A DNA stretch of 64,000 nucleotides. Source: a virus. Both the position numbers and the translations under genes were made by a program. The notes below the pieces were generated by a model. The model saw only the letters and a program-made list of their open reading frames with translations. It searched no databases and was not told where the DNA came from. Of this stretch, positions 4,533 through 43,898 are shown piece by piece; within the stretch, counting starts at the first letter, position 1; every line of letters starts with the position of its first letter. The stretch covers positions 1 to 64,000 of the IMG/VR virus record IMGVR_UViG_3300023196_003068, one strand, 5' to 3'.

Positions 4533-4559
4533 TAATTCACTATATTGGTAGCCCCTTTT

Positions 4560-26000: not shown

Positions 26001-28993
26001 TTATTTTTATGTTTCCCATGCTTATCATAATAAGAACTAAGATATGCTAACTCGCTGAGTTGATTTTTTGTTAAGCCTAACTTTGTATATAGCTCACCCC
26101 TTGCTTCTTCAATTTTTTCATGAAGATTTCTAATCTTTATTTGAACATCCCTAGTAAGAGTATTACCATTAGAATGGCCCATCGACGTTCTTGCAGGTTT
26201 AGATAACTCATATATCTCCTCATACAAGGGAGTAAGATCGGTTATCTCTATATTCTTTTGTGTAAGCGGTTCAAGAATTTCTGAGCGTTCATCAAGTAGT
26301 TGCTTACGTTCATCATACCATTTATCATCAACCTGTACTATAGTATTATGCTCAATCCACGTATCTATTGCATTTTGAAAAGCCTCTGTTCCTGGAGAAA
26401 GCTTAGGATTTTTTTCAAGAGATGCAATCATATTATCATAAGCATCTTGAAACTTTTCATCATTTGTTGTAGATTCATAAAATGGACGTTGTTTTTCACG
26501 AAACTCACGCAGCCTCTCTGCTATAGCAAGGGCTTCTCCTGTTTTTTTATTTCCTAACTCATCCGTTAAGCTAAATAAATACTCATACTCCCTCCATTTT
26601 TCCTGAAGAGCTTCAGCATTTTCGACATTTATATGGGCATCAAGAGCAACATCGGCTAACTCATCAGCTTCTTCATAAAACTTATCCAAAGCCATACGTG
26701 CTTTTATACCAATATCATCTCTAAATAGTTTCCTAACCTCATATACTTCAGAAACATTAGTTTGGTTCATGAAGTCTGTCTTAAAATCTTCAAGCTTTCC
26801 TCTGGCAATGATATATTCTCTGTGGTTTTTTACCTTCGGATTTCTCCTATATTCTTCCTTAGCGTTGTTAACTTCTTGTTTCAACAACTTTTCTGTATAA
26901 TGATGGCTATCTTGACTCTTTTTGCCATTAAAAGCATTTTGAAATTCCCAAACTTCAAAATTTTCTACCTCTCCTTTATCATTCTCTCTTCCATAATCTG
27001 TAACTTGACCTAACGCTCTTCCTAAATTCCCCTGGCCTACCCATCGTTTAAAATTCCAACCAGTAGCTCTGAAGTGTTCTTTCAAACCATCAAGAAACTC
27101 CGCTTCATTCTTATTGATATTAGCATTGGCCTCATTTAACTTATTCTCTAGAAATGAGAAAAAACTACCCACTATTTTATCCTGAGAATTATTATACCCT
27201 TCATAATATACATTAACCCAGCTAGGATCTAAGGCCCCTTCCACGAGTATTCTTTTAAAATCCTCTATGTTAGGCTTAAACGCCTCCAGGGCCATGTTAG
27301 AAAGTTCTATAAGCTCATTCTCTTCGGGTGTGGATAATTTCTCATCAACTTTTGATAACCTATTTTGTTTACGCTCAAGTACATCTTTACGATTAAGCTC
27401 ATCAACAGTTAAGCCATAATATTCTTTATGCATCTGATTGTATTCAGCGTAATTAGACTCCTTTAACCTTTCTAATTCATCTAAATACATCTTATCGGCA
27501 TTTCCCTGAGCTTCAATCATTTGAGAATAAAGTACATCAGCCACACCATCAATACGCATAACATCAACCTTCTTCTTAAGAGCATAAATCTTACTCTTTA
27601 AGTCAGATAAAAATTCACGTAAGCTACCTTTACCTTCAGGTAAAATCCCTTTTGTTTCTTCAGCAATTAAGTTATCGATATAGTTATACCACTGGTCTAC
27701 ATACTGAGCAATCCCAAACATTGTATCAATACTAGCAGGATCTATAAGTTTTGTTTTAGGAAGAGAATCTATCTTAGCACCAAAAGCATCCATTACAGTA
27801 TCCACTTCTGTTATTGTATTAACAAACATTTGGATTCGCTTTGAAACAATAGAAGCCGCATCTCCATTATTAAGTGCTGCAACATACTCGTCGGTAAGCC
27901 TATCCATCCTTGGTATTGCTTTACGGTCATTAGTATCTGAAGCAAATTTCTCAGCAGCTTGCCTCATTTTTTGTAGAATACCGGTATTATCTTCAGTAAC
28001 AAGACCTTCTGCAAATCTCTCATAAATAGTCCCCTCCCTCATGTTGGCAACCTGAGATTTAATAACAGTATTAAGATCATCCATAATATCTTGAGCCTTT
28101 GAACGAGACTCTTTATTCTGGGCATCCATCATCTTAGTAAACTCCTTTTGAAGCATGATAACATCATCCTTCTTTAAAAGCTCTACATTTAACTTAAAAT
28201 TCTCACCCTGATTAAGCATATCAACAAAATCATGTAATGATGTATCCCCGGATAGCTTTGCTACATTAACAGACCTACCAAATTTCTTACGTAAAAATTG
28301 TCTGATATTGTATATTAATTTATCAAACCAGCTCTTACTTTTAGTTAAAGACTTATCGTTTATATGAGTTAATGCTCTAACAATAGCCTCTTCCATAAAA
28401 AGATTATGATCCTCAACCTTCCCATAGTAAGAATCCTTCTTAAGTTCTTCAACAATAATATTCCCAAAATCTTCTTTAAGGAGATCGGTATATAATTTTT
28501 GCATCAGCTTTGGATTGCTTTTAGAGAGAGCCTTTATTATAGGATGGGAAAATTCATGGAAAATAGTTTCCGGAGTAAACTCCCCTTCAGTAAAATAAAC
28601 GGTTCCTGCTTGATAAAATCCTTTAACATCTATAGAACTATTTCTTAAATCCTTAGACTCTTTTGCAGATACAATTCTATAATCAATCCCTAATTGATTT
28701 GAAAAAGCCTCCATTGCGGACATACTCTCCTTAGTATTCCTTTGAATAATTATCTTTTCAAGATCCCTAATAATGTCCTCCTCTGTTACTTTAGGAACAT
28801 CTTGAGCAGTATCCAGGATTTTTGGAATATCTACATCCATAAATCGATCATTGATTTTTTTCAACACAACGCTTGGTGGACGAACCACTCCGTCTTGTTC
28901 AAAATAATCACGTTCAGCCTCCCTTTCTCCTACAACAGAAGACAGCTTTTTAAATCTATCCTGGTCTACTTTATTTATAATGCAAATTCCCAT
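23093..28993 (-). CDS. large virion cargo protein with N-terminal zincin metalloprotease domain
   Basis: 1966 aa; KGFY...TIFHEFSH (28544-28558)...MEEAIV; follows the virion RNAP as in crAss-like phages. Confidence 0.75.
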   Translation of the reverse strand: MGICIINKVDQDRFKKLSSVVGEREAERDYFEQDGVVRPPSVVLKKINDRFMDVDIPKILDTAQDVPKVTEEDIIRDLEKIIIQRNTKESMSAMEAFSNQLGIDYRIVSAKESKDLRNSSIDVKGFYQAGTVYFTEGEFTPETIFHEFSHPIIKALSKSNPKLMQKLYTDLLKEDFGNIIVEELKKDSYYGKVEDHNLFMEEAIVRALTHINDKSLTKSKSWFDKLIYNIRQFLRKKFGRSVNVAKLSGDTSLHDFVDMLNQGENFKLNVELLKKDDVIMLQKEFTKMMDAQNKESRSKAQDIMDDLNTVIKSQVANMREGTIYERFAEGLVTEDNTGILQKMRQAAEKFASDTNDRKAIPRMDRLTDEYVAALNNGDAASIVSKRIQMFVNTITEVDTVMDAFGAKIDSLPKTKLIDPASIDTMFGIAQYVDQWYNYIDNLIAEETKGILPEGKGSLREFLSDLKSKIYALKKKVDVMRIDGVADVLYSQMIEAQGNADKMYLDELERLKESNYAEYNQMHKEYYGLTVDELNRKDVLERKQNRLSKVDEKLSTPEENELIELSNMALEAFKPNIEDFKRILVEGALDPSWVNVYYEGYNNSQDKIVGSFFSFLENKLNEANANINKNEAEFLDGLKEHFRATGWNFKRWVGQGNLGRALGQVTDYGRENDKGEVENFEVWEFQNAFNGKKSQDSHHYTEKLLKQEVNNAKEEYRRNPKVKNHREYIIARGKLEDFKTDFMNQTNVSEVYEVRKLFRDDIGIKARMALDKFYEEADELADVALDAHINVENAEALQEKWREYEYLFSLTDELGNKKTGEALAIAERLREFREKQRPFYESTTNDEKFQDAYDNMIASLEKNPKLSPGTEAFQNAIDTWIEHNTIVQVDDKWYDERKQLLDERSEILEPLTQKNIEITDLTPLYEEIYELSKPARTSMGHSNGNTLTRDVQIKIRNLHEKIEEARGELYTKLGLTKNQLSELAYLSSYYDKHGKHKNNEDALAHKYFVRQLAKGLTSLGISEASAARLQEIDTLLGRLARSFSTGFYRDRFLEIIDSNDKTKKMFDNEVYQRYNIDRESGDIVSDDIFESILSDDGFRGTLDIIREENSMFKQWFDDNHYEAERTIDKGKPTIIYMKTSIWQYTRPTDDNFYKAFPLKDSDGNVTGLLEFDGVPRVPNSNYQVRKVKDEFLTKKIERDYVDDNGKLVVATINNKGEWLPKTVENGAKDDRFINQEYFDLFEKNRVKWDLLQYVKNHHLDNQANLSNSQKLGLHFPRTRKKFVEGIGIGAVYNRYAKGDSTSSKILRGIGTNRLIESIRNIWRIQRDDVEYGYNHLAQGLKVPNAQMQTLTRPITGMYDIDVNEVSTDIISSIGKYQHSVEIFKSLGEINSLAQSLNQIVKDQIQDPTVARIKNRTKTLQQMSRDNTISNRAFAVGNILEQYFSGLRLSSRWEKDSSRKARAVILSKFMKLSSRKWFMFNWMSDVTNYLSANIQFLYKITDTRHFNAKNLLVGKLKAKRAIGVVTYQQYKASAKPITLQFLDIMDASPDRLAQSVGERGSRTSVIDVVTLRVGFGIRAYLQNEANYTAMYALLDNKKYRFKMEGSDRFTTLDNAIELVDGVIQTKAGVPEEYSITYDKEGRVVLGKKIQQIIKHHKGYLKKTTGIAGLSAESEFVNRTLTGKAAFAVMRFLPGMTLDRYQVRTRSQQTSKRDRFQRRFDWYTQTAEYGQFIEAALAGRDLLFGLKDISQGNVTGSRLTSIWRNQGRKTAVMQVVMASIVNMLIDQFHLWLRFNDDDDDRAFTYNYYNLDGELVEGQDRDGMIMDLKNTTSLPNLPWIADARRADAHPWADMDWTDYWKLQFLRLSLRVERENKTFNPFRGFMLMGDMLMMKNAAQEGAYKDIMLIIQLMKEMAEGKDTEIKQNAGPYTFQQSEETKWTHAILSKLLGYNGNLISPADGIESEQAFPY

Positions 28994-30104: not shown

Positions 30105-33100
30105 TTAACATATTTCATCTGGTAAACTGTCTATATCTTCTTGAGTAAGAGCCGTTCCCTTATCTTTTTGTTGATCTGTTATATCTATTGTTCTCGAAGG
30201 TGCCTTTGGCATTCCTTCAGTTATATCAGATGCTCTCCTAAAAGTAAGAGTTATTGTGTAATCTTTAACCACCCTTCCGTCAGGAAGAGTAATAGGAGGC
30301 AAATTATTTCCTTTTGTCGGTGCCATAGGTGTATCATGAGCCATTTCAAATCTTCCTTTTCCATCCATTCCAAAAGTATAAATAGTTCCCGATTTTGTGG
30401 GAATTTCAGTTTTTCTACCCGTCTCAGCCCAAGAAGCCAGGCCAGTAGGATTGCCATTTTTATCTATATCCTCATAAATATTAATAGCATTCCCTACACC
30501 AATGGTATATACAACCACCCCATAGTTTCTTGCAGTTTCACTTTCTGTAGTATCTCTATGTGTAGAAATCTTATCACCAGGTAAATAAATATTACCAATA
30601 ACAGCATCATAATTGGACATATCGATTCCTAAAACTTGCTCCACTTCATCAATTATAGGTTGTAATACAGACAAACCAGGTAATGGATTTCCCTTTTGAT
30701 CTAAACCATGATACGCATATTTGAATCCTGTGGATTTAGTAATACCCTTTCTTTTCATTTCTGCAACCTCAGCATCTCTTGATCTTTTATCATATGAATT
30801 AATTTCCAACTTAGGATCAGCATCCAATTCAATACGTGTCCATCTTAATCCAAACTGAAACATTAGATTGGCTCTCGCACCTATATTCTCTTTAGTTGCT
30901 TGAGCTAGAATTTGAGGCTGAATAAGCTTAATAAATTCCTTCTCCTTTTCTATGGAAGGGTTTGTCTCTGCAACATTCACCCCATAGGCATCAGATATAA
31001 CTCTTACTGGGGTCTTAGGTAGCTTTTTCTTGTATAGATCAAGAATATCCTTCCTATTTCCATCAGTAGCTCCCCACTTCATTTTTTTATTAGATGTAAG
31101 AGAGATAATATTTTCCTTTGGAGTTACTAAATATTTAGCACCTTTATAAGCAACCTGAATAGCTTTAGAATTTAATGGAGTTAAATTTTTCTCGCTAAAA
31201 GATTTTTTAGCCTTAGCACCTTCTTCTTTTAAATTAAGAACTTGCCATGTTCCATTAGTATTTTTCTTAACAGCAATGTACGTAATTCCTTTGGAGTCTT
31301 TAACATACCTACCAACTTCTACAGACAGTTTGTCTTCACTAGTTGTAAGCTTACCTTTAAATGTTGCTTTATATACATCCCTAATAGCTTCTTCTGCATT
31401 AGCAGACATGCCTCTACTACCAATAGCTGCAAAATTATTAGTCAAAATAGGTGTATCAATTGACACAAATTTAGAACCATCCCAAGTATACCATCCTTGT
31501 GGTAAATGTGAATCGGCTTTTTTATTAGGATCATTATACACATATACAGGTTTTCCAGCTTGTATAGCCATTTCTACAGCATACCCAGTACCGCCTTGAA
31601 CAGACTCAGATTTGCTAATTTTTCTTTGCTTATCTTCTGGTTTATATGCATCTTCACTCCAAGTATCCCCCTTTTTTCCAATCGGAGCAACAGCAAATAC
31701 AGCTTCTGAATTAGCAACTTGTGCCCAATTTCTTATTAATCTTGAATCAGACATAGTTTTATACGCATAACCCCACATTTCTTTAGCGGCACTAGCTACT
31801 TTTGTCTTGCCATCCGTTTCAATTTGTGTATTTGTTATATCTACATTACCATAAGGTGCATTTGTTTTAGAAACTTTACCTAAATAATAATGATTGAATT
31901 TAATAGCACCAAATTCCTTAGCTATATCATCCCATATTTTATCTGCGCCAAGAGCTCCACCTGAATGAGCTGTAAAATCTTTAGGATTATTTGTACCCTC
32001 CGGTCGGTCTGCTACAACTTTATTATAAGCATTTATTAATGTTTTTAGAAAATGATTCCCTTTATCTGAAGTCCACCATGTACCTTCTCCTTTTTGATAA
32101 GCTTGAGCATCATCTTTTTCATCGTAAGTATGAATAGATTTTTCCAAGAATTCAAGACCGCCCCGCTCTATTATTTTATCAACTAAGAAAGGATACTGAC
32201 GTAGCTTAGCCTCTATAAGATTAGTAATAAGTTCAAGATTTCTCGAAGTTGTACCTCCTTTGCCTTCTTCTCTTAAATCAAAATAAGCTTCTTCTACGTC
32301 TAAGTAAGGCCTTCCTAGTGGATTACCAGCATAGTTAAGACCTTTATCTAGCTGTAGATAAGTTCCTATAAGTTTACCCTTAGATTTTGAAGACTTTCCT
32401 CTAGGATTATAATGAGTAGGATTAGTAAGAGCTGCTCCCAATGGATCATTAGAACCACTAAATATATTTACACCCTTAACACTAGTTGATTGGGAAGGTG
32501 CTACATCATTAATAAAATAATCCAATACAGTAGCGTGAGATGGGCCACCAATATTTTTATAATATTCAATTGGTAAACCTCTTAACTTTCCTTTCTTAAA
32601 AGCCTCTAATAAAGCCGTTCTATACTCTTGCTCCATAGTTGTATGCATTGTGCCTTGAAGCCACCCTATAAATTCTTGAGCTCCTCTTCCTGGTTTATTA
32701 GGATCCGCTGATATCGGATTTCCTATAGCGTTATACTGTTGAAATGATTTTAAGAAACCTAATTTCTTATTAACCCTAAATGCAGTAACAACTTTTTTAT
32801 TCCTAGTATTTTTAAAAATCCTTAAATGACCTGTTGTTTCATCCACTCCTTCTACAATCACAACCTTTCCGCGAATAGTCTTACCCCCAAGCTTATTCCA
32901 TACTTCCATGATTTTAGCAGAAAACTTGTCCTTTCCTACAGAAATACTCTTTTGATTTTTAAGTTTTGCAATTTCGGTATTTCGATAAACAGTCCTAACT
33001 TCCATTAAGACCTTCTCTAACATTGTAGAATATGGACTAACACCTATTTCTATAGGCCCATCAGTATTTGCAAGTCGATCAAAGAAGTCAGATTTTTTGT

Positions 33101-36100
33101 CACCATGATTCTTGAATTTATCCTTTACCTTTTGCTTCATATCATTAGCAACCTCAATAATAGATTCATTCGTTATAAGATCATCAGCTGACCTACTGTT
33201 TATCTCTTTTGAAAGAGCCTCATTAAACAAATAATCTAAGCCAAGATAATCCAACTTAACAGGAGCCTTATTAGGATCAAATAAATTATTTACTGAAAGA
33301 TCTTTGTCATTTGTCCACTCCATGTACTTACCAATTGGAGCATATCTAGGAATCGCTACCCAGCCTTTTTCTTTAAGAAAGTCAGACGCTAATTGCTCAA
33401 TTCCAGAATCTTTAAGACCTATATTAAAACGAGCCCCGGCTTTCATGGCTTTTTTAATTTTAGGTAAATAGTGTGTCTTAAACACTGCTTCAATTTCTTT
33501 TTGATACCCCTCTTCCTTAAGATCATGGGCTTCTTTAGCTCTAAACGTATTGTTACCAAACACCCAAACAACATCCTCTGAGCTAAATTTAGTTTTACTA
33601 TGAGCTAATCGCTCCTTATAATCCCCTGCTTCAATTATTCCTATATATTTAGAAGTAGTACTTCTTGGTATGCCCGAAAGCTCAACATCTTTCCCAATAG
33701 CTACTGTAGAAGCATTAGCCATTGCTTCATCTCTAGAAGTATCCTTTGCTCTTGCTCCCTCGATAGTCGCTATAGATATATTATCTGGTGTTTGACCAAG
33801 AGATAGATCAACGAGATATGGAACTGATTTTCTATTGTCTATACCAAATTCAGTAAGTAGCATTTGATCAAGTTCTTCTTGAATAACACCCTCCGGAGCA
33901 TCTATTTTTCTATCTAGAATATATATCTCCTCTCCTTTTAGTTCTTCTATAAAATCCAAATCAAGGCTATTACCTTTAAACCATTGATGATCATAAACCT
34001 GAATTGAATCAGACGGCAACTCATTAAAATTATTTACAATCTGAACATTATTATACGTCAGAGATTTAACAACATGAGTCTCAATTGTAACACCCAAATC
34101 ATCTTTCATGTAATTTATACCCCTACTCATTATCCTTGAAGCATTCTCCTTGCTAAGAAGCCCATCATATATTGCAGTAAATAGGTCTATATACCCTATG
34201 GATTCTAAAGGAGTTCCGCTTGCCTTAGCTTTCTCTGCCGCCTTCAATGCTCGAATTACTCTCTCTGCTTTAATCCCTTCCTCAATAACATTCCAAAGCT
34301 TATATTGGTTGATGATTTTTGTTAACGCATATTTAGCACCAGTATTTAAACCAGTTTGCATTATAGCCATATTCCCAAACTTATTAAAAAAATCAGCAAC
34401 AGCTGGTATTCTATGAGCTTTAAGTGCAATAAGATTTTCACGATAAATTCTAGCCATATCTGCATCCTTAATATCGGAAAGGAATATATTAGTTTTGCGA
34501 AGATCTATGGCATAATCAAAACGCAAATCTTGTATTAAACTAAAATTTTCACGCAACTCAGGATGCTTTTGCATAAGCCTTCTTAATATTGATGCTCTGC
34601 CCATTCTGAAATCAAACATTGCTACAGGATCATCGGACCGATATAATGCTGCTTTATATAAAAGTGCAACTCTAGTAAATGTCCCACTAGAATAACTATT
34701 AAACTGGTATAAATGTTTTTGAACCTCCTCATTGCTCATATCTTTAGTTTCCTCCTCTAATTTTGCAAACTCTATTGAGAACCGAACAAATTGATTTCTA
34801 CCTCCCGGTGGAAACATTTGGGATAAATCTGAAGATATATAATCCGCACCAAAAAGAATAGTACTAACTCTTTGTTGCGCTTCATCCATCCACTTACTTC
34901 CAAAGGTAATTTTTTTATCCACCTCATTAATAACCAAAGGATCTGAACTCCCCTGAACTTCTTCTAATGCATACCCATCATAGCTTTCTGAATTAAATAA
35001 AGAGTTCTGATATAAGAATAGTGTGAAATCATTCTTAAACTTATTTCTAGTGACTTGTGGGATAATGCCTGGCGGGGAGTTTATTTCAAATGACTTCTCG
35101 ATAACAATAGGATTGTTACGTAAAGCAAAATATTTACTAAACAACTCTATTATAAATTGATCATTATCAAAGATACCAACAGGAGAAAATTCTATTTCGT
35201 CAAACCATAGATTAGGAATAGCTGATTGCTTACTTTTAAACTTAGTAGTTCTTGTTATGCGGTTTGTCGCTTCAGAAATACTCCTTATTTTTTGAGTGTC
35301 AAACTTTGTTAAATCTTGAAATGTCTGAAGGTCTAATGCCAAATCTTCAATCTCAAGATAATGAGAAAATATCTTAAACTGTTCAAAAGAAAAAGCTCCT
35401 TTACCATCTACTGCTTTAAGCCCCTCATCCAACAAGTCTTTAATTACACTAAAGTCTAAATTACCATCTAATAATGCACTAACTTTCTTGTATTCAGATG
35501 CCTTCCATTCTCTTTCATCTTTAAAACCATCTCCCTCTTTAAACCAATCAAACATTGCATACCGAGCCTTGCTTAATATTTTTGACCTCTCCACAATAGG
35601 ACTCACTCCAAACTCATCACTAAGATTACTAAAGACACCAGAAAGCTCTGCCTTTATTTTGTTATACTTAACAATCATTGGCATCGAAACAAAGTATGCA
35701 ATATCCTTAATACTCATTCCGGCCATAACCATAAGCAAAAGCTGTGGAGTATTCTCTTTATTTCCTTGAATTTTAAATATCCATGGGTTAGTTGCAACAT
35801 CTACATACCCATTAACTAATTGCCCAAGAACTTGTGATATAGGTAACCCGTCCATATTCTTAGCCATAGCGAGTGATATTGCACCATTCGCCTTATTGTG
35901 CTTAAACTTAATGGTATAATCAGTAAACTCAAATATAACCTTATTGGCAATATCTATTTGAGCCTTTGTAGATTTATCATTTTCTAATACCTCAATAGCC
36001 TTTGCGTGTTCTCGCTTTTCTTTTTCAGTAGCAGTATTAAGTGTTGCTCCAAATCTTGTAAATAAAGCATAATATGTCGTAGCAATAGCGGCTATACCCA

Positions 36101-39100
36101 GAGCATCTATTCCTATAGAATTATCTTGTTGTTTTTGTAGATTCATTCTATAGTCTAAGACAGTAGACCTTGCTATATCTGTTCCTGCTTCTTTATCTAA
36201 TCGGTTGAATTCATTAAAGCTTTTTTCTATAAGGGCATATGCCTGGTCAGCTAAACTTCTTAAATCAGTTTCTTCTTGAGCTTTAGTTTTACGCTTTTTC
36301 TTTTTTGTCTTACCCTCTACCTTCTCTTCAGTCTTTCCTTCTGTAAATAGATCGGTTTTATTTGGACGAATAAGAGCTTCAAAATTATTACTCATAGTAA
36401 TTCTATCCTTGAAAGATTTTAAAAGCTCATTTTCTAAGCCTCCCATTCCTTTATTAAATAGCTTTCTTAATACTCTTCCCTTTTTAACTTTAAGATCTTC
36501 AGCTTTATCATATAAACCATTAATCTCCGCTCTATAATTATCTTTAATCTTTTCAATTGTTGCGGTTTCCTCTGAAGTAAAAACTATTTCAGCTAGAGCT
36601 ATATCAAGTCTTTCATCAAATACGGCAATACCTTCATCAATAGCCTGTTGTATCTCAGAAATACGCGATGATGTATATGCATGCACATTTCTTTGTTGCT
36701 TACGAGTATAATTTTTAAAATTACCTACACTATTATAAACATCACTTGCATATTGCAAAGTCTCCACCATTTGCATCTCAAGCTTCTCCATTTGAATAGC
36801 ATACTGCGGGAATTTAGCTCTTATAATCCCCTCAATATCTTTAATACTTTCATTAACCTTCTTTAGCTCATTTATTCTTCTTGTTTTAGCATCCTTTATC
36901 TGATCATAAACATCATTTATTTTAGTAGAGTATCCATCAATACTTTTCCCTAACTTCTCAAAACTTTCAGAAACCTTTTTGTGTACCTGCATTTCAACAC
37001 TTCCATTTATTGAAACTATATTTGGAAACATTGTAAACAGCTTATCAAAATCAAAATCTGAACCTGTTTTTGCGACTATCTCTGAAGGGACAACAACGAT
37101 AGGACCAACGGACTCTGGTAAGAACTGCTTAACTACCATTGCCTCTAGTGTGTTTTCTTCTGCTGTAGGTATACGTGGCCCTGCAATAGTAAGCATATCT
37201 TCATACTTAGCGAACCATTCCTTGTCACGCAAAGCACTATTTAATCGAGCTAAAGAAGCCTGACTATCTATAATGTCCTTGCCTGACTTAGCATCCTTTA
37301 CTCTTACAGTAATATCTTGACCATCGGGATGCTTTAATTTTAATAGATGCTTGAATTTACCTTGAAGGCCAATCTTAACCTCCATCTTAGATATCTTATA
37401 ATCAGCCCAAGCTCCCTCTCTTTCGTCTTTTATAAAGTTCCCATCTGCATCTTTTAAGTAGTAACTCTTAAGATCTCCGGCACTTAATATATCTCCAAAT
37501 TTTTCTATGTCTTCTGCTGTAGGCCCTTCAAAAGATTCCTGCATTGCTCCAGTAACCTGAACCAAAGGCTCACCATTAACCTCTATTCCCCGAAGCTTCT
37601 TGTCAACCATTACTGTAAGAATCTTCTCTATTTTTTCAGCAACCAAAGAAATAGATAAATCATCTATCATTTCTCCACTACCATCCTGTTTTGATATAAA
37701 CTGAACCTCTTCTGGAAGTAAATCTTCTTTCTCTAATTGTGATTGAATATAGATTAATAGCTTTTTTGTATCCCCTTTATAAGTTTTTTTCTCTTTACCT
37801 TCAACCCAGGTAATTTCTTCTTCCATTCCTATATCAAAAAGTAAATCTTCTTTAAGTTTTACTTCCATCCGATGAAGAATATCCTCATAGTTGGTTAACC
37901 ACTTGTAATTTGGAGATTTATTCTCTTGTTCTTTTTCAGATAAACTATCCCAATTTTCCTCTATAACTTTCCATTGCTTTGCAGTACCATTAAAATCAGT
38001 CGGCACACCACCCTCCATAATGCCCAATAGAACTAATTTTCTCCATTGTGTTGGCAGTGTAGTGTAGCCCTTATATCCACTCTGAGTTCTAATCTGATCC
38101 CTAAGCCACCTAACATGAATTTTATTTATAGTAAAGGGAGCATCTGTTATTTCTCTTTCTTTGTTGTAAACATCATCAGCCTTAGCATCTTCTATCGCAT
38201 TTTTATTTATACTACCATCTGAATTTTTTCCTTTTATAGTTACAATAGTGGAAAGTTTAGAGCCTGTCTCCATGGTAACATAATGAACACCATCTTCCAT
38301 CATTTTTTCATGAAGCTTTTCTAATTTAGTCCCTGCATAAGCAGTAGGAATGATTGGTGCTAATGAGTACTTATGAAAGCCCCTCATCTGTAGACCATAA
38401 TTATTGTTATCTTCATTTGAGATGTTCCCATTGTATTGAAACTTCCTAACAGGAAACGTAACCTTTAAGTCTGCCGGCTCAAGAGTCTCTCCCTTAAGGA
38501 TTTTTTGATAAACAGACTCCTGGCTAGCCTCACCTGTAGTCGTCCAATTATTAGAAGCCATCGATAGGATCCGATATGTATCAAATGTTATCCATCCTTG
38601 AGCATCAGCCTCCTCTATTCCTTCATAATTTTCTTTTTTAGTACCACCCAGTTTTTCGTATTGGTCTTTAAAATAAGAATCATGCTCAGACTCTTTAATT
38701 ATTCCTGTATTTAAATGACCATCAAACGTAGTCTCCTTAAATGTTTTGCCAATTGCCTTCATGTGCTTTTTGGCAAACCCATTCATTTCAAATACATTAT
38801 TTTTCTCAGTGTTTATATAGTTATACCAGCTTTGATCAAACCGAAACATGTCTCCTGTAGAGATAACCCCCGCATTACGTTTGTGGAAATTTCCAGCTGC
38901 AACTTCATAAATGGCTAAATCTCCAACAAACATTGTAACATAGTTAACATTGTTGATGTAATTGTTTATGATCATTGCCCTAAACATCCTCTCCTTAGTA
39001 GTGGCTACTTCTTCTTTATCATTTTTTCGATACTCTTCAATCTTATTTTCTGCAATTTTAACGTCTCCCTTCTCCTTAAGTAGCTCCTCAGATCGTTTTT

Positions 39101-42100
39101 CAAAATATCTTTTTAAGTCTTTTTCAATTTCCTTTTTTTCCGAAAAAGAAAGCGTAGAATCTAATGTAAAAGATGTATCAATATTTCTTTCCAAAAGTCT
39201 CTTTTGTACATCATCGCTTAACAATAAATCAAACATGTGAAGATCCTCTCCTCTTTCTAAAAATCCCTTATCAAACTTAACGGTCTCACCCTTTTCAATA
39301 CGAGCCTTGATAGCCTTAATGCGTGCTATACGAACTAACTCCCCCTCCAGGTGTCCTTGAAATTGATTATATAGTATTAATGAATTAATCGGACTCTTAA
39401 GGTCGTCATACTCTTCAGAAAAAATATGATTTATCTCATTCATACTTACAACCAATCCTTTTCGTGGATTAATTTCTCCTTTAACTTTAACCGGAGCAAA
39501 TACAGTAGCAGATGTAGCCTTTGCTTCAGATCGTGGTATCTCCTGACGAGCCGCCAATGTTAAATACATATCAGATATAAACTTGGTATTCTCATCTGAT
39601 GAAATAGCCTCTATTCCTTTTTCTTCTCTTCCATACCTTACCTTAGAGCCTGATAAAGTTTCATGTGTAATATTAATAGCTGGATTACGCTCCCCTCTTT
39701 TATCACCTTCAATATCCAATTGAAACATTTGAATAAACCAAGTATTACCTGCTATAGCCGGATTAGTTTCAACATTAAATCCCTCCATACCAGGAATGCC
39801 TATTAATTCATCATAACTCTTTGCGTTATTTAAGGTAGCAGCCTGGATTGTCATCGATGAATGCTTCGTCTTTTCAGACATGCGTTCATTATTTGCATTG
39901 AATTCAGTAAAATTTACATACTCATCAGAAAGATGTTGTGCTAACTGTACGATTTGTTCATAATACCCACTAACATCTGGCTGTGTTCGCTTCTCATTAT
40001 TGGGGTCTATATAATCAAATGATTTAAAAAGACTCTCAAGGTCGTATATACGAGAAACTTTCTCCGAAGCAAACTCACCTCGTAACTTAATGGATTCTAT
40101 AATATAGTGAAGAACCCCCTTACCAATTCCCAATTCCTCATACCCTTTTTCAAGAGCATCTCTTACCTCAATGGTTTCAGGTAACTCAATTCCTATAATC
40201 TTTAATAAAGGAAAAGGATCTGCCAACCATTGTTTGCGATGAAAAGGTTCGTAATCATAATTTACATCTTTTTCTTTGTGAAACAACTCACCAGATGCAT
40301 TTATAGGAACATGAACCATAGTTTCAAAGCTCTCTATTACACCCATTAAATCATAAGTTTCTAGGTATTGACGATTATCTGCTTCATCTGTTGCGTAAAT
40401 AGACCATTCGTTTATTTCAGATTGATTTCTAAAGTTATCCCGCCATTGTCCTTTAATGATTGCAGCATTCCCTTTTGGCTTACCTACAATTGACTCCCAT
40501 CGAACACTCTCAGTCGCTTCATCTTCTATCTTTTCTAATGAATGATAAGTAAGACGATTTGTTGCTTTAGCTATAGATTGCCACAATGCTCCCCACTGAA
40601 CTTGCTCAACTGTTTTAATATCCGCAGATTGCAAATCACCCATTACCTTTAGCACCTGTCTTATTTCATGGTCAAACTTTGCTGCTTCTTTAAGTGCGTT
40701 ATAAATATCATCTGCATCTACGCGATTTCCTACTATTTTAACAAGCTTCCCTAATATTGTCTTAAAAGGGAGTGGCTGCGGAAGACCCAGGCGATTTGGT
40801 TTATATTTATCACTTCTTCCTTGTCTTTTATATGAAGGAATCCCACTCAATAAATGTCGGGTAAGATCATTTGCCGACTCAGTAATTGAAAATTCAGCTC
40901 CCGTCCGATCAAAAACATGTCTTAAGCGAGCATCTGTTTCATCATCCGTAAGCTCCTCAATATTTTGAACCTCCTCATTGAAAGTGTAAAAATCAGCATA
41001 GTTGTTTAGGAATAGTCCAATTATTGTATTATTGTCATCTTTAAAAGTATTAATCGAAGCTTCGGTATCTCCAAAAGAATCTAAAATTTTATCCAATAAT
41101 GCCACCTTCTCAGCTTCCACTATAGATAAAACATTCATCCCGTTCATGTATATTTGTCGCTTTGTTTTAAATACATTCTCCATGTACTTAAAAGCTGCTG
41201 CTAAAATAGAAGGCTCTTGCACAACTCTTAAATATCCAAGACCATTCCTAATACTAGTCTTTCCCAGGTGACCATCAAGTAACTTATTTGCTTCTTTATA
41301 GTTTTTATTAAACTCAGGATCGCTTACATCTAAAGATGATAACTGGGTAAGCAATTCAATCGCTTTTAGATTTGACTCAGGAGTAGCTCCTGTATTTAAT
41401 GCTGTTACTACAAATCTATGCATCAATGCTTTCATTGATGTCATGGTTATATTAACATCATCAAAACTTAAATCTACATCCTTCCCAAGCTCAAAGCTAG
41501 AGTAATATGTTTCCGGATCATTGGGAATCTCAAATTTAGATATATCAATATTTCCTTCGTATAAATCTTTAAAGATGGCATTAACTTTTGGGCCAAACTT
41601 ATTAAGAGTAGTAACTTCGTTTACTGTTGTTTTACCAAAGAATTTTTTTAATTGAGCCAACAACTTCGCAAAGAACTTAGCAACTTTAGATTTTGGCTTT
41701 TTATTAAAGGCACTACGATTAGTAGCATATTTACGAAATTCCTCTGCTAAATACTCTTCTATTTCTAAATCTGTAGCATCTTTAAAGTTTAATGTCTTAG
41801 CCTTTCCTAAAACCGTTACTGTAAATTGACCACCAAGACCCCTAACCTCTTTATAAATTTCAGCAACTTCCTCTTTAGTTAATATGGAATCAGTAAGACC
41901 ATGCCATGATTCATGGTATATATCTGTTTTTTGCGAACCAGAATATAGTGTAATTAATCCCGCTATATAATCAGCCACATATTTTGGTCCCTTTTCATGA
42001 ACCTTATCCTTAATTTGAAGGCGTATAACTTTTCTTAAAGGATTATCTTCTGATTTCCACCATCTATCTGCAGCATCATCTTGTTCTTTAGTAGATTTTC

Positions 42101-43898
42101 CTCGTTTGTTATGCTCCGATATTGTTCTAAAAAGTAAATCTTTTGCTTCTTCGTCGGTTTTTTCTTCTATCTCCGTAGATGCCTCTATAGAGGAAAATGA
42201 TAAATAAGAACCATGGCCTCTAATCTCTCCTTTATCATTGGGAACTTGTGTAATATAACCATTATCACTAATAAACGCTGCTCTATCTTTTTCGACTATT
42301 GTTATTTCATTATCCTTAATAGAACCTACAACCCTAACCTTATCTGTTAATGTTACCCCACGATATAAACCAAAATTAATTTCTGGTTTACGAGCCATCA
42401 TTATTCTATCCCCATCTCTAAATATTTGATTATGAAAGGTTACATTCTCTAATCCATTTACAAGCTCATAATCTTTAGGAAGATCTTGATGATAATCAAA
42501 TGGTACAAGCTTTTGCGTCCACTCAATAAAGGTTTCTTTAAAATTCTCAAAATTAACCGGAGAACCATTCCTGAACACGATTGCCCTAGAATCACCCAGG
42601 ACTACTGATGTAATTCTTATGCCATCATCTTTAATTGTAAAAGGTATCTCGTGTTTTATATTGCTACTCGCTCTAAACTGAATAAAATTAGTAATAAGCC
42701 TTTTCCTTTCAATTAATGGCAAAGGATTACCATCTATTTTTAAATCAGGATTTACTATTAGCTCTGCAATATAATCAAGTTCCTTTTCGGATAACTGATC
42801 TAAAGGTTTATTGTGTATTCTAGCAGGTGCCGATGATCTAGGAACTTTCAGTACTGGAAAATTGGATTTACCTATAGATGCAATAGTCAGCACAGTCTCA
42901 CTAATATTTCTAATACTCCCTATAGGAGTTTGTGTATTGTGATCCCTTGCAACAAACCCGATGCTACTAGCATTCATGTTTAAATGAAAGAATACATTTT
43001 TCTCAGCCAAAAGCTTTCTTGAAGTATTCAACATTGCGATATGATTATCTATCTCTGCATTAACAAGTTTTGATGCATCCTCCGGGCTTAATGGTTCTTC
43101 TTTTCTATTCACAAGTGAATCAATTTTAGATTCAATAGTTACCTTATACTCAGCCTTGCTTACTCTTATAGGAAAAGCAGGAATCTTACCATTAACATCA
43201 GGGTTTCCTTGTTCATCGAACTTAACTATATTGCCATCCTTATCAACTAACACCATCACCGGGCGAGACAAATCATCCTTTGGATACTTATAACTAATAT
43301 CAGAGTTAAGATTAGCTTGTTCAATGGTCATCATTTTAAACCTATACCCCTTGCTATTGTTAGAATTAATTACAGAAGTCTGAACAGCAATTTCAAATAC
43401 CTTTTCCTGGTCTGGTACATTCTTGGAATATTGAAAATCTGCATCCCACTCAGACTCCTGGCTAATAGTCTTAGCAAAAGAACGAGATATTGCGTTATAC
43501 GAAAGAGGAGCCATTGGTGCTACTGTAATGCCGCCAACTCCTAGTGAGCTAACTATACCAGTAATTATGTTCTGAAAGTCCTCTTTAGATGGTTGTTGAG
43601 AAGCCTTATATATCTCAGTTCTTTTTTTGTTTATCTCTCCAACAAGAGTCTTCTCATTAATTGCCGGGTTCTTTAGGATATACTGCGTAAGTATTTCAGG
43701 CAGAATTGTGAAGTGCTGAATAAGAGTTTCTTGATTATCAAGCTTAGTCTCAGATAGATTAAAATCCTTAAGGGCTTTCTGATAAAGTTCTCTTTGAATT
43801 TCATCATACGTCTTCTCGTTGGAAATTATATTCTCCAAATTATTTGTGAAGTAAGTCCCAAAAAGATTAATTGACCTAGAAGTTATACAAACATTCAT
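30105..43898 (-). CDS. virion RNA polymerase (crAss-like, single-chain double-psi beta-barrel) polyprotein with zincin and C-terminal accessory domains
   Basis: 4597 aa; RIPT...FLP...VVPSEIVAKTGSDFDFDKL (catalytic DxDxD at 37044-37058), EADAQGW, KYSLAP; zincin HESWH (41901-41915)...EEYLAEEF. Confidence 0.92.
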   Translation of the reverse strand: MNVCITSRSINLFGTYFTNNLENIISNEKTYDEIQRELYQKALKDFNLSETKLDNQETLIQHFTILPEILTQYILKNPAINEKTLVGEINKKRTEIYKASQQPSKEDFQNIITGIVSSLGVGGITVAPMAPLSYNAISRSFAKTISQESEWDADFQYSKNVPDQEKVFEIAVQTSVINSNNSKGYRFKMMTIEQANLNSDISYKYPKDDLSRPVMVLVDKDGNIVKFDEQGNPDVNGKIPAFPIRVSKAEYKVTIESKIDSLVNRKEEPLSPEDASKLVNAEIDNHIAMLNTSRKLLAEKNVFFHLNMNASSIGFVARDHNTQTPIGSIRNISETVLTIASIGKSNFPVLKVPRSSAPARIHNKPLDQLSEKELDYIAELIVNPDLKIDGNPLPLIERKRLITNFIQFRASSNIKHEIPFTIKDDGIRITSVVLGDSRAIVFRNGSPVNFENFKETFIEWTQKLVPFDYHQDLPKDYELVNGLENVTFHNQIFRDGDRIMMARKPEINFGLYRGVTLTDKVRVVGSIKDNEITIVEKDRAAFISDNGYITQVPNDKGEIRGHGSYLSFSSIEASTEIEEKTDEEAKDLLFRTISEHNKRGKSTKEQDDAADRWWKSEDNPLRKVIRLQIKDKVHEKGPKYVADYIAGLITLYSGSQKTDIYHESWHGLTDSILTKEEVAEIYKEVRGLGGQFTVTVLGKAKTLNFKDATDLEIEEYLAEEFRKYATNRSAFNKKPKSKVAKFFAKLLAQLKKFFGKTTVNEVTTLNKFGPKVNAIFKDLYEGNIDISKFEIPNDPETYYSSFELGKDVDLSFDDVNITMTSMKALMHRFVVTALNTGATPESNLKAIELLTQLSSLDVSDPEFNKNYKEANKLLDGHLGKTSIRNGLGYLRVVQEPSILAAAFKYMENVFKTKRQIYMNGMNVLSIVEAEKVALLDKILDSFGDTEASINTFKDDNNTIIGLFLNNYADFYTFNEEVQNIEELTDDETDARLRHVFDRTGAEFSITESANDLTRHLLSGIPSYKRQGRSDKYKPNRLGLPQPLPFKTILGKLVKIVGNRVDADDIYNALKEAAKFDHEIRQVLKVMGDLQSADIKTVEQVQWGALWQSIAKATNRLTYHSLEKIEDEATESVRWESIVGKPKGNAAIIKGQWRDNFRNQSEINEWSIYATDEADNRQYLETYDLMGVIESFETMVHVPINASGELFHKEKDVNYDYEPFHRKQWLADPFPLLKIIGIELPETIEVRDALEKGYEELGIGKGVLHYIIESIKLRGEFASEKVSRIYDLESLFKSFDYIDPNNEKRTQPDVSGYYEQIVQLAQHLSDEYVNFTEFNANNERMSEKTKHSSMTIQAATLNNAKSYDELIGIPGMEGFNVETNPAIAGNTWFIQMFQLDIEGDKRGERNPAINITHETLSGSKVRYGREEKGIEAISSDENTKFISDMYLTLAARQEIPRSEAKATSATVFAPVKVKGEINPRKGLVVSMNEINHIFSEEYDDLKSPINSLILYNQFQGHLEGELVRIARIKAIKARIEKGETVKFDKGFLERGEDLHMFDLLLSDDVQKRLLERNIDTSFTLDSTLSFSEKKEIEKDLKRYFEKRSEELLKEKGDVKIAENKIEEYRKNDKEEVATTKERMFRAMIINNYINNVNYVTMFVGDLAIYEVAAGNFHKRNAGVISTGDMFRFDQSWYNYINTEKNNVFEMNGFAKKHMKAIGKTFKETTFDGHLNTGIIKESEHDSYFKDQYEKLGGTKKENYEGIEEADAQGWITFDTYRILSMASNNWTTTGEASQESVYQKILKGETLEPADLKVTFPVRKFQYNGNISNEDNNNYGLQMRGFHKYSLAPIIPTAYAGTKLEKLHEKMMEDGVHYVTMETGSKLSTIVTIKGKNSDGSINKNAIEDAKADDVYNKEREITDAPFTINKIHVRWLRDQIRTQSGYKGYTTLPTQWRKLVLLGIMEGGVPTDFNGTAKQWKVIEENWDSLSEKEQENKSPNYKWLTNYEDILHRMEVKLKEDLLFDIGMEEEITWVEGKEKKTYKGDTKKLLIYIQSQLEKEDLLPEEVQFISKQDGSGEMIDDLSISLVAEKIEKILTVMVDKKLRGIEVNGEPLVQVTGAMQESFEGPTAEDIEKFGDILSAGDLKSYYLKDADGNFIKDEREGAWADYKISKMEVKIGLQGKFKHLLKLKHPDGQDITVRVKDAKSGKDIIDSQASLARLNSALRDKEWFAKYEDMLTIAGPRIPTAEENTLEAMVVKQFLPESVGPIVVVPSEIVAKTGSDFDFDKLFTMFPNIVSINGSVEMQVHKKVSESFEKLGKSIDGYSTKINDVYDQIKDAKTRRINELKKVNESIKDIEGIIRAKFPQYAIQMEKLEMQMVETLQYASDVYNSVGNFKNYTRKQQRNVHAYTSSRISEIQQAIDEGIAVFDERLDIALAEIVFTSEETATIEKIKDNYRAEINGLYDKAEDLKVKKGRVLRKLFNKGMGGLENELLKSFKDRITMSNNFEALIRPNKTDLFTEGKTEEKVEGKTKKKKRKTKAQEETDLRSLADQAYALIEKSFNEFNRLDKEAGTDIARSTVLDYRMNLQKQQDNSIGIDALGIAAIATTYYALFTRFGATLNTATEKEKREHAKAIEVLENDKSTKAQIDIANKVIFEFTDYTIKFKHNKANGAISLAMAKNMDGLPISQVLGQLVNGYVDVATNPWIFKIQGNKENTPQLLLMVMAGMSIKDIAYFVSMPMIVKYNKIKAELSGVFSNLSDEFGVSPIVERSKILSKARYAMFDWFKEGDGFKDEREWKASEYKKVSALLDGNLDFSVIKDLLDEGLKAVDGKGAFSFEQFKIFSHYLEIEDLALDLQTFQDLTKFDTQKIRSISEATNRITRTTKFKSKQSAIPNLWFDEIEFSPVGIFDNDQFIIELFSKYFALRNNPIVIEKSFEINSPPGIIPQVTRNKFKNDFTLFLYQNSLFNSESYDGYALEEVQGSSDPLVINEVDKKITFGSKWMDEAQQRVSTILFGADYISSDLSQMFPPGGRNQFVRFSIEFAKLEEETKDMSNEEVQKHLYQFNSYSSGTFTRVALLYKAALYRSDDPVAMFDFRMGRASILRRLMQKHPELRENFSLIQDLRFDYAIDLRKTNIFLSDIKDADMARIYRENLIALKAHRIPAVADFFNKFGNMAIMQTGLNTGAKYALTKIINQYKLWNVIEEGIKAERVIRALKAAEKAKASGTPLESIGYIDLFTAIYDGLLSKENASRIMSRGINYMKDDLGVTIETHVVKSLTYNNVQIVNNFNELPSDSIQVYDHQWFKGNSLDLDFIEELKGEEIYILDRKIDAPEGVIQEELDQMLLTEFGIDNRKSVPYLVDLSLGQTPDNISIATIEGARAKDTSRDEAMANASTVAIGKDVELSGIPRSTTSKYIGIIEAGDYKERLAHSKTKFSSEDVVWVFGNNTFRAKEAHDLKEEGYQKEIEAVFKTHYLPKIKKAMKAGARFNIGLKDSGIEQLASDFLKEKGWVAIPRYAPIGKYMEWTNDKDLSVNNLFDPNKAPVKLDYLGLDYLFNEALSKEINSRSADDLITNESIIEVANDMKQKVKDKFKNHGDKKSDFFDRLANTDGPIEIGVSPYSTMLEKVLMEVRTVYRNTEIAKLKNQKSISVGKDKFSAKIMEVWNKLGGKTIRGKVVIVEGVDETTGHLRIFKNTRNKKVVTAFRVNKKLGFLKSFQQYNAIGNPISADPNKPGRGAQEFIGWLQGTMHTTMEQEYRTALLEAFKKGKLRGLPIEYYKNIGGPSHATVLDYFINDVAPSQSTSVKGVNIFSGSNDPLGAALTNPTHYNPRGKSSKSKGKLIGTYLQLDKGLNYAGNPLGRPYLDVEEAYFDLREEGKGGTTSRNLELITNLIEAKLRQYPFLVDKIIERGGLEFLEKSIHTYDEKDDAQAYQKGEGTWWTSDKGNHFLKTLINAYNKVVADRPEGTNNPKDFTAHSGGALGADKIWDDIAKEFGAIKFNHYYLGKVSKTNAPYGNVDITNTQIETDGKTKVASAAKEMWGYAYKTMSDSRLIRNWAQVANSEAVFAVAPIGKKGDTWSEDAYKPEDKQRKISKSESVQGGTGYAVEMAIQAGKPVYVYNDPNKKADSHLPQGWYTWDGSKFVSIDTPILTNNFAAIGSRGMSANAEEAIRDVYKATFKGKLTTSEDKLSVEVGRYVKDSKGITYIAVKKNTNGTWQVLNLKEEGAKAKKSFSEKNLTPLNSKAIQVAYKGAKYLVTPKENIISLTSNKKMKWGATDGNRKDILDLYKKKLPKTPVRVISDAYGVNVAETNPSIEKEKEFIKLIQPQILAQATKENIGARANLMFQFGLRWTRIELDADPKLEINSYDKRSRDAEVAEMKRKGITKSTGFKYAYHGLDQKGNPLPGLSVLQPIIDEVEQVLGIDMSNYDAVIGNIYLPGDKISTHRDTTESETARNYGVVVYTIGVGNAINIYEDIDKNGNPTGLASWAETGRKTEIPTKSGTIYTFGMDGKGRFEMAHDTPMAPTKGNNLPPITLPDGRVVKDYTITLTFRRASDITEGMPKAPSRTIDITDQQKDKGTALTQEDIDSLPDEIC
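30230..30985 (-). other. AlkB-like 2OG-Fe(II) dioxygenase domain within the vRNAP ORF
   Basis: AVIGNIY..GDKISTHRD (HxD at 30552-30560), YTIG, SGTIYTFG, AHD (distal His), ITLTFRR. Confidence 0.8.
31360..31980 (-). other. circularly permuted SLOG (YpsA-like) domain within the vRNAP ORF
   Basis: HSGGALGAD, RNWAQVANSEAVFAV, GGTGYAVEMA...GKPVYVY, C-terminal NFAAIGSR. Confidence 0.75.
32015..32478 (-). other. NADAR (YbiA-like) domain within the vRNAP ORF
   Basis: LTNP, DVEEAY, AKLRQYPFL, WW...GNHFLKTL match the NADAR LSNF / E..Y / KF.Q...L / W...G.N.LG..L layout. Confidence 0.65.

Follow-up and report, generated by a model that had tools for sequence, protein, structure and literature searches.

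The giant polymerase gene and its AlkB-like domain

The DNA stretch analyzed here, 64,000 nucleotides in length and in the following referred to as the window, is part of a 74-kb virus record in IMG/VR (IMGVR_UViG_3300023196_003068) with a completeness rating of 63%. A 13.8-kb open reading frame (ORF) on the minus strand of the window encodes a giant protein related to the virion RNA polymerases (vRNAPs) of crAss-like phages, and the 3' end of this ORF codes for an AlkB-like domain. As judged from profile and structure comparisons, this domain belongs to the AlkB family of Fe(II)/2-oxoglutarate (2OG) dioxygenases and apparently is catalytically intact. The ORF, the domain, and the elements of the domain are located as follows (pLDDT, predicted local distance difference test):

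30105-43898, minus strand: ORF of 4597 amino acids (aa), homolog of crAss-like vRNAPs with a long multi-module C-terminal extension (ORF list, translation, BLASTP, tblastn)
30231-31007, minus strand: AlkB-like Fe(II)/2OG dioxygenase domain, aa 4298-4556 (Pfam, profile searches, AlphaFold, Foldseek, hhalign, VIA-align)
30108-30230, minus strand: 41-aa C-terminal tail, modeled with low confidence, in which C4597 is the last residue (AlphaFold model, Cys positions)
30723-30833, minus strand: variable insertion of ~37 aa in the nucleotide-recognition lid, between W4353 and the Y-x-Y motif (alignment; pLDDT 73-82)
aa 4394-4396, minus strand: Y-x-Y motif, Y4394/Y4396 equivalent to Y76/Y78 of Escherichia coli AlkB (hhalign)
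30585-30593, minus strand: N-x-Y motif, N4436/Y4438 equivalent to AlkB N120/Y122 (hhalign; kept in 144 of 144 family segments)
30543-30560, minus strand: H-R-D-T-T-E, aa 4447-4452, with H4447/D4449 equivalent to H131/D133, E4452 to E136, and Thr4451 at the D135 position (hhalign)
aa 4516, minus strand: R4516, equivalent to AlkB R183 (hhalign)
30336-30338, minus strand: His4521, distal iron ligand, equivalent to AlkB H187 (hhalign; kept in 149 of 150 segments)
30234-30257, minus strand: T-I-T-L-T-F-R-R, aa 4548-4555, with Thr4548 at the R204 position, T4552 equivalent to T208 and R4554 to R210 (hhalign)
30234-30251, minus strand: TLTFRR, aa 4550-4555 (motif in frame)

An AlkB-like dioxygenase had been predicted at 30230-30985 beforehand, and these limits nearly coincide with those of the folded domain. 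The only Pfam family matched was the expected one, PF13532 (2OG-FeII_Oxy_2; 21.9 bits and E = 2.3e-4 for the domain, 18 bits for the whole protein), but the domain score remained below the gathering cut-off of 31.2 bits. A search of the PDB with the single domain sequence returned noise only (aspartic proteases, E = 0.2), the whole 4597-aa protein had no match in the PDB, and Pfam searches with five other pieces of the protein yielded nothing credible. The domain appears to represent a divergent AlkB clade that is under-detected by the Pfam model. An alignment of 30 sequences of the domain was the source of the PDB profile search, the hhalign comparison, the AlphaFold model, and the retrieval of related loci from IMG/VR. 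With this profile, the rice protein OsALKBH1 (5xeg) was the best match in the PDB (E = 7.4e-7), followed by ALKBH2 and E. coli AlkB. The hhalign comparison to E. coli AlkB (sequence drawn from NC_000913) reached a probability of 94.1% (E = 1.2e-7) over AlkB residues 73-214.

The AlphaFold model (pLDDT 87, predicted template modeling score 0.84) contains the N-terminal nucleotide-recognition lid and the double-stranded beta-helix of AlkB-family proteins. The original prediction had made itself dependent on the prediction of such a beta-helix, and the model is clearly of the AlkB type. Foldseek placed E. coli AlkB on top of the PDB matches (E = 9e-11); among the 50 matches listed, all were 2OG oxygenases and 49 belonged to the AlkB family, the exception being PolD. 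In the VIA-align comparison, E. coli AlkB had a Z score of 21.0 (root mean square deviation 2.2 Å, 194 of 203 residues, AlkB residues 12-214) and OsALKBH1 a score of 20.4, followed by ALKBH2, ALKBH3, and ABH1 with scores of ~15 and by FTO and ALKBH5 with 12-14. The two top scores thus exceed those of other ALKBH proteins by 5 units and those of prolyl hydroxylases and TET by 9-10. Prolyl hydroxylases, lysyl hydroxylases, and TET proteins all had scores of <=12, with values of 10.9 for NgTET1 and 10.1 for TET2, and the TET/JBP proteins thus are not the closest relatives. The proposal of an AlkB-type double-stranded beta-helix dioxygenase with a complete iron triad is upheld by AlphaFold, Foldseek, hhalign, and VIA-align alike.

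The fold is shared with E. coli AlkB (b2212; PDB 3KHB, 2FD8, 3BI3) over essentially the whole enzyme at a sequence identity of ~21%. OsALKBH1 (PDB 5XOI/5XEG), which was aligned from the N-x-Y motif through LTFR, ties structurally with AlkB. In contrast to the domain in the window, E. coli AlkB is a free, Ada-regulated repair enzyme and OsALKBH1 a stand-alone eukaryotic protein, whereas the window domain is a module of a 4597-aa virion protein.

Active site and cofactor pocket

The H-x-D...H iron triad that had been noted originally lies in frame (aa 4447-4449 at 30552-30560, and His4521). N120/Y122, H131/D133/H187, E136, R183, T208, R210, and Y76/Y78 of E. coli AlkB are all matched in the window domain. 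The residues of the AlkB lid that contact the base and the backbone, W69 and Y76, have counterparts as well: W4353, located in the sequence FGLRW (G-x-x-x-W), parallels W69 in GHLGW of AlkB, an equivalence that is based on the motif and on structural coverage. The lid insertion of ~37 aa, compared to 6 residues in E. coli AlkB, varies in length among family members.

Conservation was counted in 159 domain segments from representative matches, of which 135-149 cover each active-site position. The equivalents of H4447, D4449, and E4452 were kept in 144 of 144 segments and that of W4353 in 135 of 136, and where covered the metal, cofactor, and lid residues, except for the R204 position, are invariant although the segments are only 27-62% identical to the query. 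Since the active-site residues and the W69-like Trp are invariant at this degree of divergence, catalysis and base stacking appear to be under selection, which argues for an enzyme that is functional and continues to stack a flipped base. The invariant active site also led to the rejection of an inactive or decayed domain.

The 2OG-binding pattern described in the original prediction was confirmed in part: the N-x-Y motif and TLTFRR with its R210 equivalent are present, but the position of R204, which in AlkB binds the C5 carboxylate of 2OG, is occupied by Thr4548. OsALKBH1, in contrast, retains an R204-type Arg in GRLNLTFR. Within the family this position is Arg in 74 and Thr in 73 sequences, and it covaries near-perfectly with position 4515, so that Arg occurs with Asn and Thr with Gly (30255-30257 for position 4548, 30354-30356 for position 4515). 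Position 4515 is the residue just before the R183-like Arg. Because of this covariation, the presence of two alternative designs of the 2OG pocket in the family is suggested. The D135 position, which in AlkB recognizes the exocyclic amine of 1-methyladenine (m1A) and 3-methylcytosine (m3C), is likewise substituted, by Thr4451; here the family has Thr in 83, Asp in 47, and Ser in 9 sequences. Entries 4nii, 4nig, and 4nih, which were among the Foldseek matches, are engineered D135/E136 mutants of AlkB with DNA containing N6-methyladenine (m6A).

These comparisons bear on two alternatives to the removal of alkyl groups from bases. A TET/JBP-like writer would install an oxidized base on phage DNA or transcripts, for example against restriction. 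The chemistry is common to the superfamily and phages do use base hypermodification, but the TET-type Z scores of ~10 compare to 21 for AlkB, the AlkB-specific N-x-Y motif, R210, and lid residues are present, and a single ejected copy per virion would be ill-suited for genome-wide writing. Oxidative base modification thus is the least supported of the activities proposed originally, and we regard it as the least probable of all readings considered here. The domain could also hydroxylate a protein (the polymerase, a neighboring cargo protein, or a host protein) or serve only as a structural spacer where the next cargo protein follows, both very improbable. Some ALKBH proteins indeed act on proteins, the domain is located 41 residues from a terminal Cys that possibly tethers the next protein, and its 2OG pocket is altered. 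However, the base-stacking Trp and the phosphate-binding Tyr of the AlkB lid are kept, prolyl and lysyl hydroxylases are far more distant (Z <=12), and a mere spacer is ruled out because the iron triad and the cofactor residues are invariant in ~145 diverged members.

The polymerase carrier, its shuffled modules, and their distribution

Additional features of the 4597-aa protein are the polymerase core and three modules of the C-terminal extension that precede the AlkB-like domain:

35673-39233, minus strand: RNA polymerase (RNAP) core, aa 1556-2742, alignable to residues 760-1654 of gp66 of phage phi14:2 (BLASTP)
37044-37058, minus strand: DFDFD catalytic metal-binding motif, aa 2281-2285 (aligned with GSDFDIDK of gp66)
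31992-32486, minus strand: NADAR-like module, aa ~3805-3969 (VIA-align, ESM Atlas)
31356-32006, minus strand: SLOG-type Rossmann-like module, aa ~3965-4181 (VIA-align, PHROG)
31035-31322, minus strand: small module F, aa 4193-4288, flanked by the SLOG and AlkB-like modules (found elsewhere as a unit of its own in the related loci L029 and L049)

BLASTP aligned the protein with phi14:2 gp66 (E = 1e-16) over ~700 columns and through the GSDFDxDK catalytic motif, where KTGSDFDFDKLF of the window protein pairs with KTGSDFDIDKMY of gp66. A tblastn search with the region around DFDFD matched crAssphage genes annotated as 'RNAP catalytic subunit' and phi14:2 g066, and the core region is the part most shared with other giant proteins bearing the AlkB-like domain. 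On the basis of these alignments the 4597-aa ORF is assigned as a homolog of the crAss-like vRNAPs. The flanking ORFs resemble gp67 (2169-aa ORF, E = 8e-5) and gp65 (1966-aa ORF, E = 0.018, in the HExxH region); these matches are weak but ordered, and the gp67-gp66-gp65 order of the phi14:2 map that they reproduce rests on them. The HExxH motif of the 1966-aa neighbor (FHEFSHP, aa 146, 28544-28558, minus strand) aligns with LHEIMHD of phi14:2 gp65, and the polymerase has another such motif in its N-terminal part (YHESWHG, aa 662, 41901-41915, minus strand). Both motifs are possible protease sites of the zincin-like type within cargo proteins. Besides the homologous core, catalytic motif, and gene neighborhood, phi14:2 gp66 shares a terminal Cys with the window protein; it has 2180 aa and lacks AlkB, NADAR, and SLOG domains, whereas the window protein has ~1800 extra C-terminal residues. 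The structure of gp66 is presumably PDB entry 6VR4.

Strand usage and GC skew change near 23 kb, where ~25 small plus-strand genes (1-23096) are opposed by a block of giant and structural genes on the minus strand (23093-64000). PHROGs searches with nine neighboring ORFs gave a single structural match and nothing else, and peptide patterns of the polymerase core found no close relatives in IMG/VR. Because PHROGs recognizes almost nothing in the structural block, the phage is placed in a very divergent crAss-like lineage beyond the reach of routine annotation.

Several modules of the extension were recognized mainly by structure. BLAST comparisons against related loci separated distinct modules upstream of the AlkB-like domain, and a second AlphaFold model (aa 3786-4200, pLDDT 76) comprises two domains. 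The first resembles NADAR proteins, with VIA-align scores of 7.4 for YbiA (2b3w) and 7.3 for NADAR with ADP-ribose (8bau), and its nearest ESM Atlas clusters are NADAR (score 0.91); Pfam did not match the window copy, and the NADAR-like assignment is of moderate confidence. The second is of the SLOG type, with VIA-align scores of 11.3 for 3imk, ~6 for DprA, and 5.5 for YpsA and a match to PHROG 768 ('DprA-like', E = 1.3e-6). A PDB profile search with the NADAR/SLOG alignment returned nothing and Foldseek on the two-domain model gave weak matches, so that the structural assignments come from VIA-align and the ESM Atlas. The two modules are candidate injected enzymes for the handling of ADP-ribose or NAD signals. 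Together with the AlkB-like domain they form a trio that is found again, with its order shuffled, in polymerases of related phages.

The arrangement of the modules was surveyed in 75 loci retrieved from IMG/VR with the profile of the AlkB-like domain. In nearly all of them the domain is part of a giant ORF, with a DxDxD motif ~1000-1300 residues upstream; it is usually C-terminal of the catalytic motif, and N-terminal of it in L017/L035/L036 and L070. A SLOG module adjoins or lies near the AlkB-like domain in 19 loci, either before or after it. NADAR follows the domain in five loci according to an iterative search and in five more according to Pfam matches above the gathering score, and a superfamily 1 (SF1; RecD/Pif1-like) helicase follows it in four of ten tails scanned with Pfam. 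The SF1 domains (AAA_30 and UvrD_C_2) downstream of the AlkB-like module are found in L044, L069, L012, and L055, and in L069 and L055 a Pfam-certified NADAR is located between this module and the helicase. Because its position and its neighbors change across the 75 loci, the AlkB-like domain is best understood as an optional module, shuffled in position, of a cargo tail with several enzymes and not as a dedicated part of the polymerase. Its original description as the terminal domain of a phage RNA polymerase holds insofar as no other folded domain follows it in this gp66-related protein, but not in the sense of a dedicated accessory of this enzyme.

The architecture is not an assembly artifact, since a 795-nt contig from a separate marine sequencing run, ~95% identical to the window, bridges the SLOG/F/AlkB junctions. 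An assembly chimera as the origin of the architecture was rejected on the basis of this independent contig.

A tail of this kind, with several effector domains on one polypeptide and an order that is shuffled among relatives, has the properties of the polyvalent proteins of phages and conjugative elements, in which small enzymatic domains are shuffled on one delivered polypeptide (Iyer et al., 2017; PMC5512222). The same domain-string logic is seen here, with a two-barrel RNA polymerase as the carrier. The main text of the polyvalent protein study mentions no AlkB, 2OG dioxygenases, NADAR, or SLOG (PMC5512222).

The company of the AlkB-like module raises the possibility that it strips deliberate marks, and not accidental damage, beside NADAR, a family that removes ADP-ribose from guanine. 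Such marks could be m6A, with phage marks being reset or a protective host methylation being removed, or base adducts written on incoming phage DNA by a host defense. Such an eraser is the main rival of the reading favored below, but we consider it rather unlikely. NADAR and SLOG are typical of NAD/ADP-ribose conflict systems, the module is optional and shuffled as anti-defense genes are, OsALKBH1, a plant ALKBH1-type protein, is structurally as close as AlkB (Z = 20.4 versus 21.0), and the D135 residue is replaced by Thr, with mutants of AlkB at D135/E136 being known from the PDB in complex with m6A DNA (4nii, 4nig, 4nih). In addition, mark-resetting has been suggested for AlkB-like genes that stand alone in jumbo phages (Iyer et al., 2021; PMC7824862). 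However, wild-type AlkB is poor on m6A, no known defense system that alkylates phage bases was found, the module neighbors indicate an association and not a common pathway, and Asp is retained at the D135 position in about one third of the family.

The parallel to plant RNA viruses drawn in the original prediction holds at the level of the fold: the matches of Foldseek searches of BFVD included closterovirus, vitivirus, and potyvirid polyproteins with E values of 1e-7 to 1e-6. In the replicases of Closteroviridae, Betaflexiviridae, and some Potyviridae an AlkB fold is embedded in the viral polymerase polyprotein, often near an SF1 helicase, and in this respect these replicases resemble the relatives of the window phage that have an SF1 helicase after the AlkB module. 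The pairing of AlkB and helicase recalls ALKBH3 with the ASCC3 helicase as well as the AlkB-helicase order of the plant virus replicases. In the eukaryotic RNA viruses, the domain is internal to an RNA-dependent RNA polymerase polyprotein made in the cell, whereas in the window it belongs to a double-stranded DNA phage and is attached to a DNA-dependent two-barrel RNAP that is probably delivered as a pre-made protein from the virion. The fusions of polymerase and AlkB domains in plant viruses and phages arose independently.

Searched exhaustively with HMMER, 1.84 billion representatives yielded 204 relatives of the AlkB-like domain at E <=0.001, 95 of them below 1e-30, and the proteins that contain them mostly have 3000-6000 aa. 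With 204 clusters at 50% identity the family is large. A tblastn search with three diverse members of the family returned no match to the AlkB-like module in 50,697 GenBank phage records. The window polymerase matched 61 GenBank phage records, mostly gut crAss-like phages, none of which carries the module. When 185,579 species genomes were scanned with one peptide pattern, which limits the sensitivity, the family was detected only in L079 and L080, two contigs of Legionellaceae metagenome-assembled genomes. These contigs have lengths of 6.8 and 9.0 kb and carry family copies that are ~38% identical; they probably are phage fragments mis-binned with bacteria rather than sources of cellular genes. 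The clade thus looks almost confined to viruses, as far as the single-pattern genome scan can tell. Its absence from gut phages of strict anaerobes and its presence in aquatic relatives would be consistent with a real catalytic use of this oxygen-dependent enzyme.

Short metagenome contigs of hydrothermal-vent and marine origin are 95-99% identical to parts of 30105-33000, which points to a marine origin of the phage. Among the listed sequencing runs no RNA run contains this stretch, and the best DNA runs contain only parts of it (share <=0.23).

Stand-alone genes of the family occur on two contigs of jumbo size, L018 (368 kb) and L033 (391 kb). This adds to the stand-alone AlkB-like 2OG- and iron-dependent dioxygenase genes that are sporadically distributed in jumbo phages (Iyer et al., 2021; PMC7824862) and that, unlike the domain in the window, are not fused to a virion protein. 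In L018 (6673-12042), the 263-aa member is located between a Thg1-like tRNA-His guanylyltransferase (Pfam E = 1.3e-30) and an NT5C 5'-nucleotidase, with a weak CYTH-like match below the Pfam cut-off on the same side as the Thg1-like gene. This jumbo phage neighborhood is of an RNA or nucleotide repair type. A module directed at RNA could demethylate or repair host tRNA or rRNA and thereby retune translation, or act on phage transcripts or tRNA damaged in conflict, in a way similar to the plant RNA virus AlkB domains and ALKBH1/3/8. The fold resembles the AlkB domains of RNA virus replicases, the module is tethered to an RNA-making enzyme, and the L018 member adjoins the Thg1-like enzyme, the CYTH-like match, and the 5'-nucleotidase. 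Against this, L018 represents one neighborhood only, the SF1 helicase, NADAR, and DprA-like SLOG neighbors suit DNA at least equally well, and the sequence does not separate RNA from single-stranded DNA. An RNA-directed role appears quite unlikely.

Proposed delivery and function of the module

In the phage phi14:2, gp66 is a virion protein that enters the host and transcribes the early genes (bioRxiv 10.1101/2020.03.07.982082). Since this related polymerase is a packaged protein that reaches the cell together with the DNA, the AlkB-like module most likely is delivered into the host at the moment of infection, by analogy with phi14:2. The positions of the Cys residues are in line with a packaged protein. 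Four consecutive ORFs (23093-50407, minus strand; 9100 residues in total) have Cys at their facing termini only:

43898-50407, minus strand: 2169-aa ORF, C2167
30105-43898, minus strand: 4597-aa polymerase, C4 and C4597
28995-30101, minus strand: 368-aa ORF, C5 and C368
23093-28993, minus strand: 1966-aa ORF, C4

Terminal Cys residues are also present in phi14:2 gp67 and gp66. In the family, Cys occurs in the last 1-5 residues of ~85% of 150 representative matches and of nearly all giant ORFs in the 75 loci. The AlkB-like segments themselves lack Cys in 155 of 159 cases, including the window domain, whereas E. coli AlkB has four. This pattern fits a putative head-to-tail disulfide chain of virion proteins. 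A solved disulfide connects Cys1715 of gp27 with Cys5 of gp26 in cyanophage A4 (PMC12002296). The restriction of Cys to the termini would, indirectly, tie the AlkB-like module to the packaged polypeptide.

Taken together, the module is proposed to be an active AlkB-type dealkylase on the ejected polymerase, which would remove lesions or marks of the N-alkyl type from the single-stranded DNA of the phage or from its early RNA and thereby allow the first transcription to proceed. A probability of approximately 0.5 is assigned to this reading. In this reading, the module is part of a tail of small enzymes for the handling of nucleic acids (NADAR-like, SLOG, small F, and AlkB-like domains), which crAss-like phages assemble in differing orders, and the polymerase would be ejected into the cell together with its AlkB module and the phage DNA. 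Given iron, 2OG, and oxygen, an alkylated base would be flipped between the conserved Trp and the first iron-binding His, and the N-linked alkyl carbon would be hydroxylated and leave as an aldehyde, which would restore the base. The likeliest substrates would be early transcripts or single-stranded phage DNA, the template form preferred by gp66, which is far less efficient in transcribing double-stranded DNA (bioRxiv 10.1101/2020.03.07.982082). The outcome would be a first round of transcription that is free of blocking lesions or marks.

Several points weigh against this proposal. The AlkB-like domain misses the Pfam gathering cut-off. Since the ligand of the C5 carboxylate, R204, is replaced by Thr4548, cofactor binding may be altered, and since D135, a helper in the recognition of m1A and m3C, is Thr in the window domain, these classical lesions may not be substrates. 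Ejection is deduced from a relative without the AlkB module, and the module could be cleaved off or stay in the capsid. The analysis shows the fold, the conservation of the active site, the homology to the polymerase, and the modular build of the protein, whereas packaging and ejection, the nucleic acid substrate, and the dealkylation chemistry are conclusions that for the whole clade are drawn by inference.

A bolder version of the proposal would be an injected counter-defense enzyme that arrives with the first DNA and oxidatively strips host-written methyl groups, or larger N-linked adducts such as ADP-ribose, from the bases of single-stranded phage DNA, in parallel to the NADAR hydrolase. 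The clade with Thr in place of Arg would then have a cofactor or substrate pocket re-tuned for this counter-defense job. This version is unlikely; if true, it would be without precedent both as an oxidative eraser of a defense-imposed DNA modification and as a repair-type enzyme with demonstrated delivery from the virion.

For the favored dealkylase, as for the module in general, parts of the setting are familiar: AlkB domains are known from viral replicases and stand-alone AlkB-like genes from jumbo phages, and phages inject polymerases, ADP-ribosyltransferases, and anti-restriction proteins. In the searchable literature, no paper was found that describes the fusion of an AlkB module to a crAss-like virion RNA polymerase, nor one on a pre-formed enzyme for base repair or demethylation that is attached to an injected polymerase. 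The module belongs to a distinct and apparently virus-restricted AlkB clade with an unusual dimorphism of the cofactor pocket. The natural split between Arg and Thr in this pocket is of interest to the enzymology of 2OG oxygenases, and the shuffled AlkB, NADAR, SLOG, and helicase tails provide a catalog of candidate injected effectors. The distribution of the family, which is missing from gut crAss phages of anaerobes but occurs in marine and other environmental relatives, entails an ecological prediction, namely that the module depends on oxygen. If the module is active, environmental crAss-like phages would protect or reset bases in the first seconds of infection, before the onset of phage gene expression.

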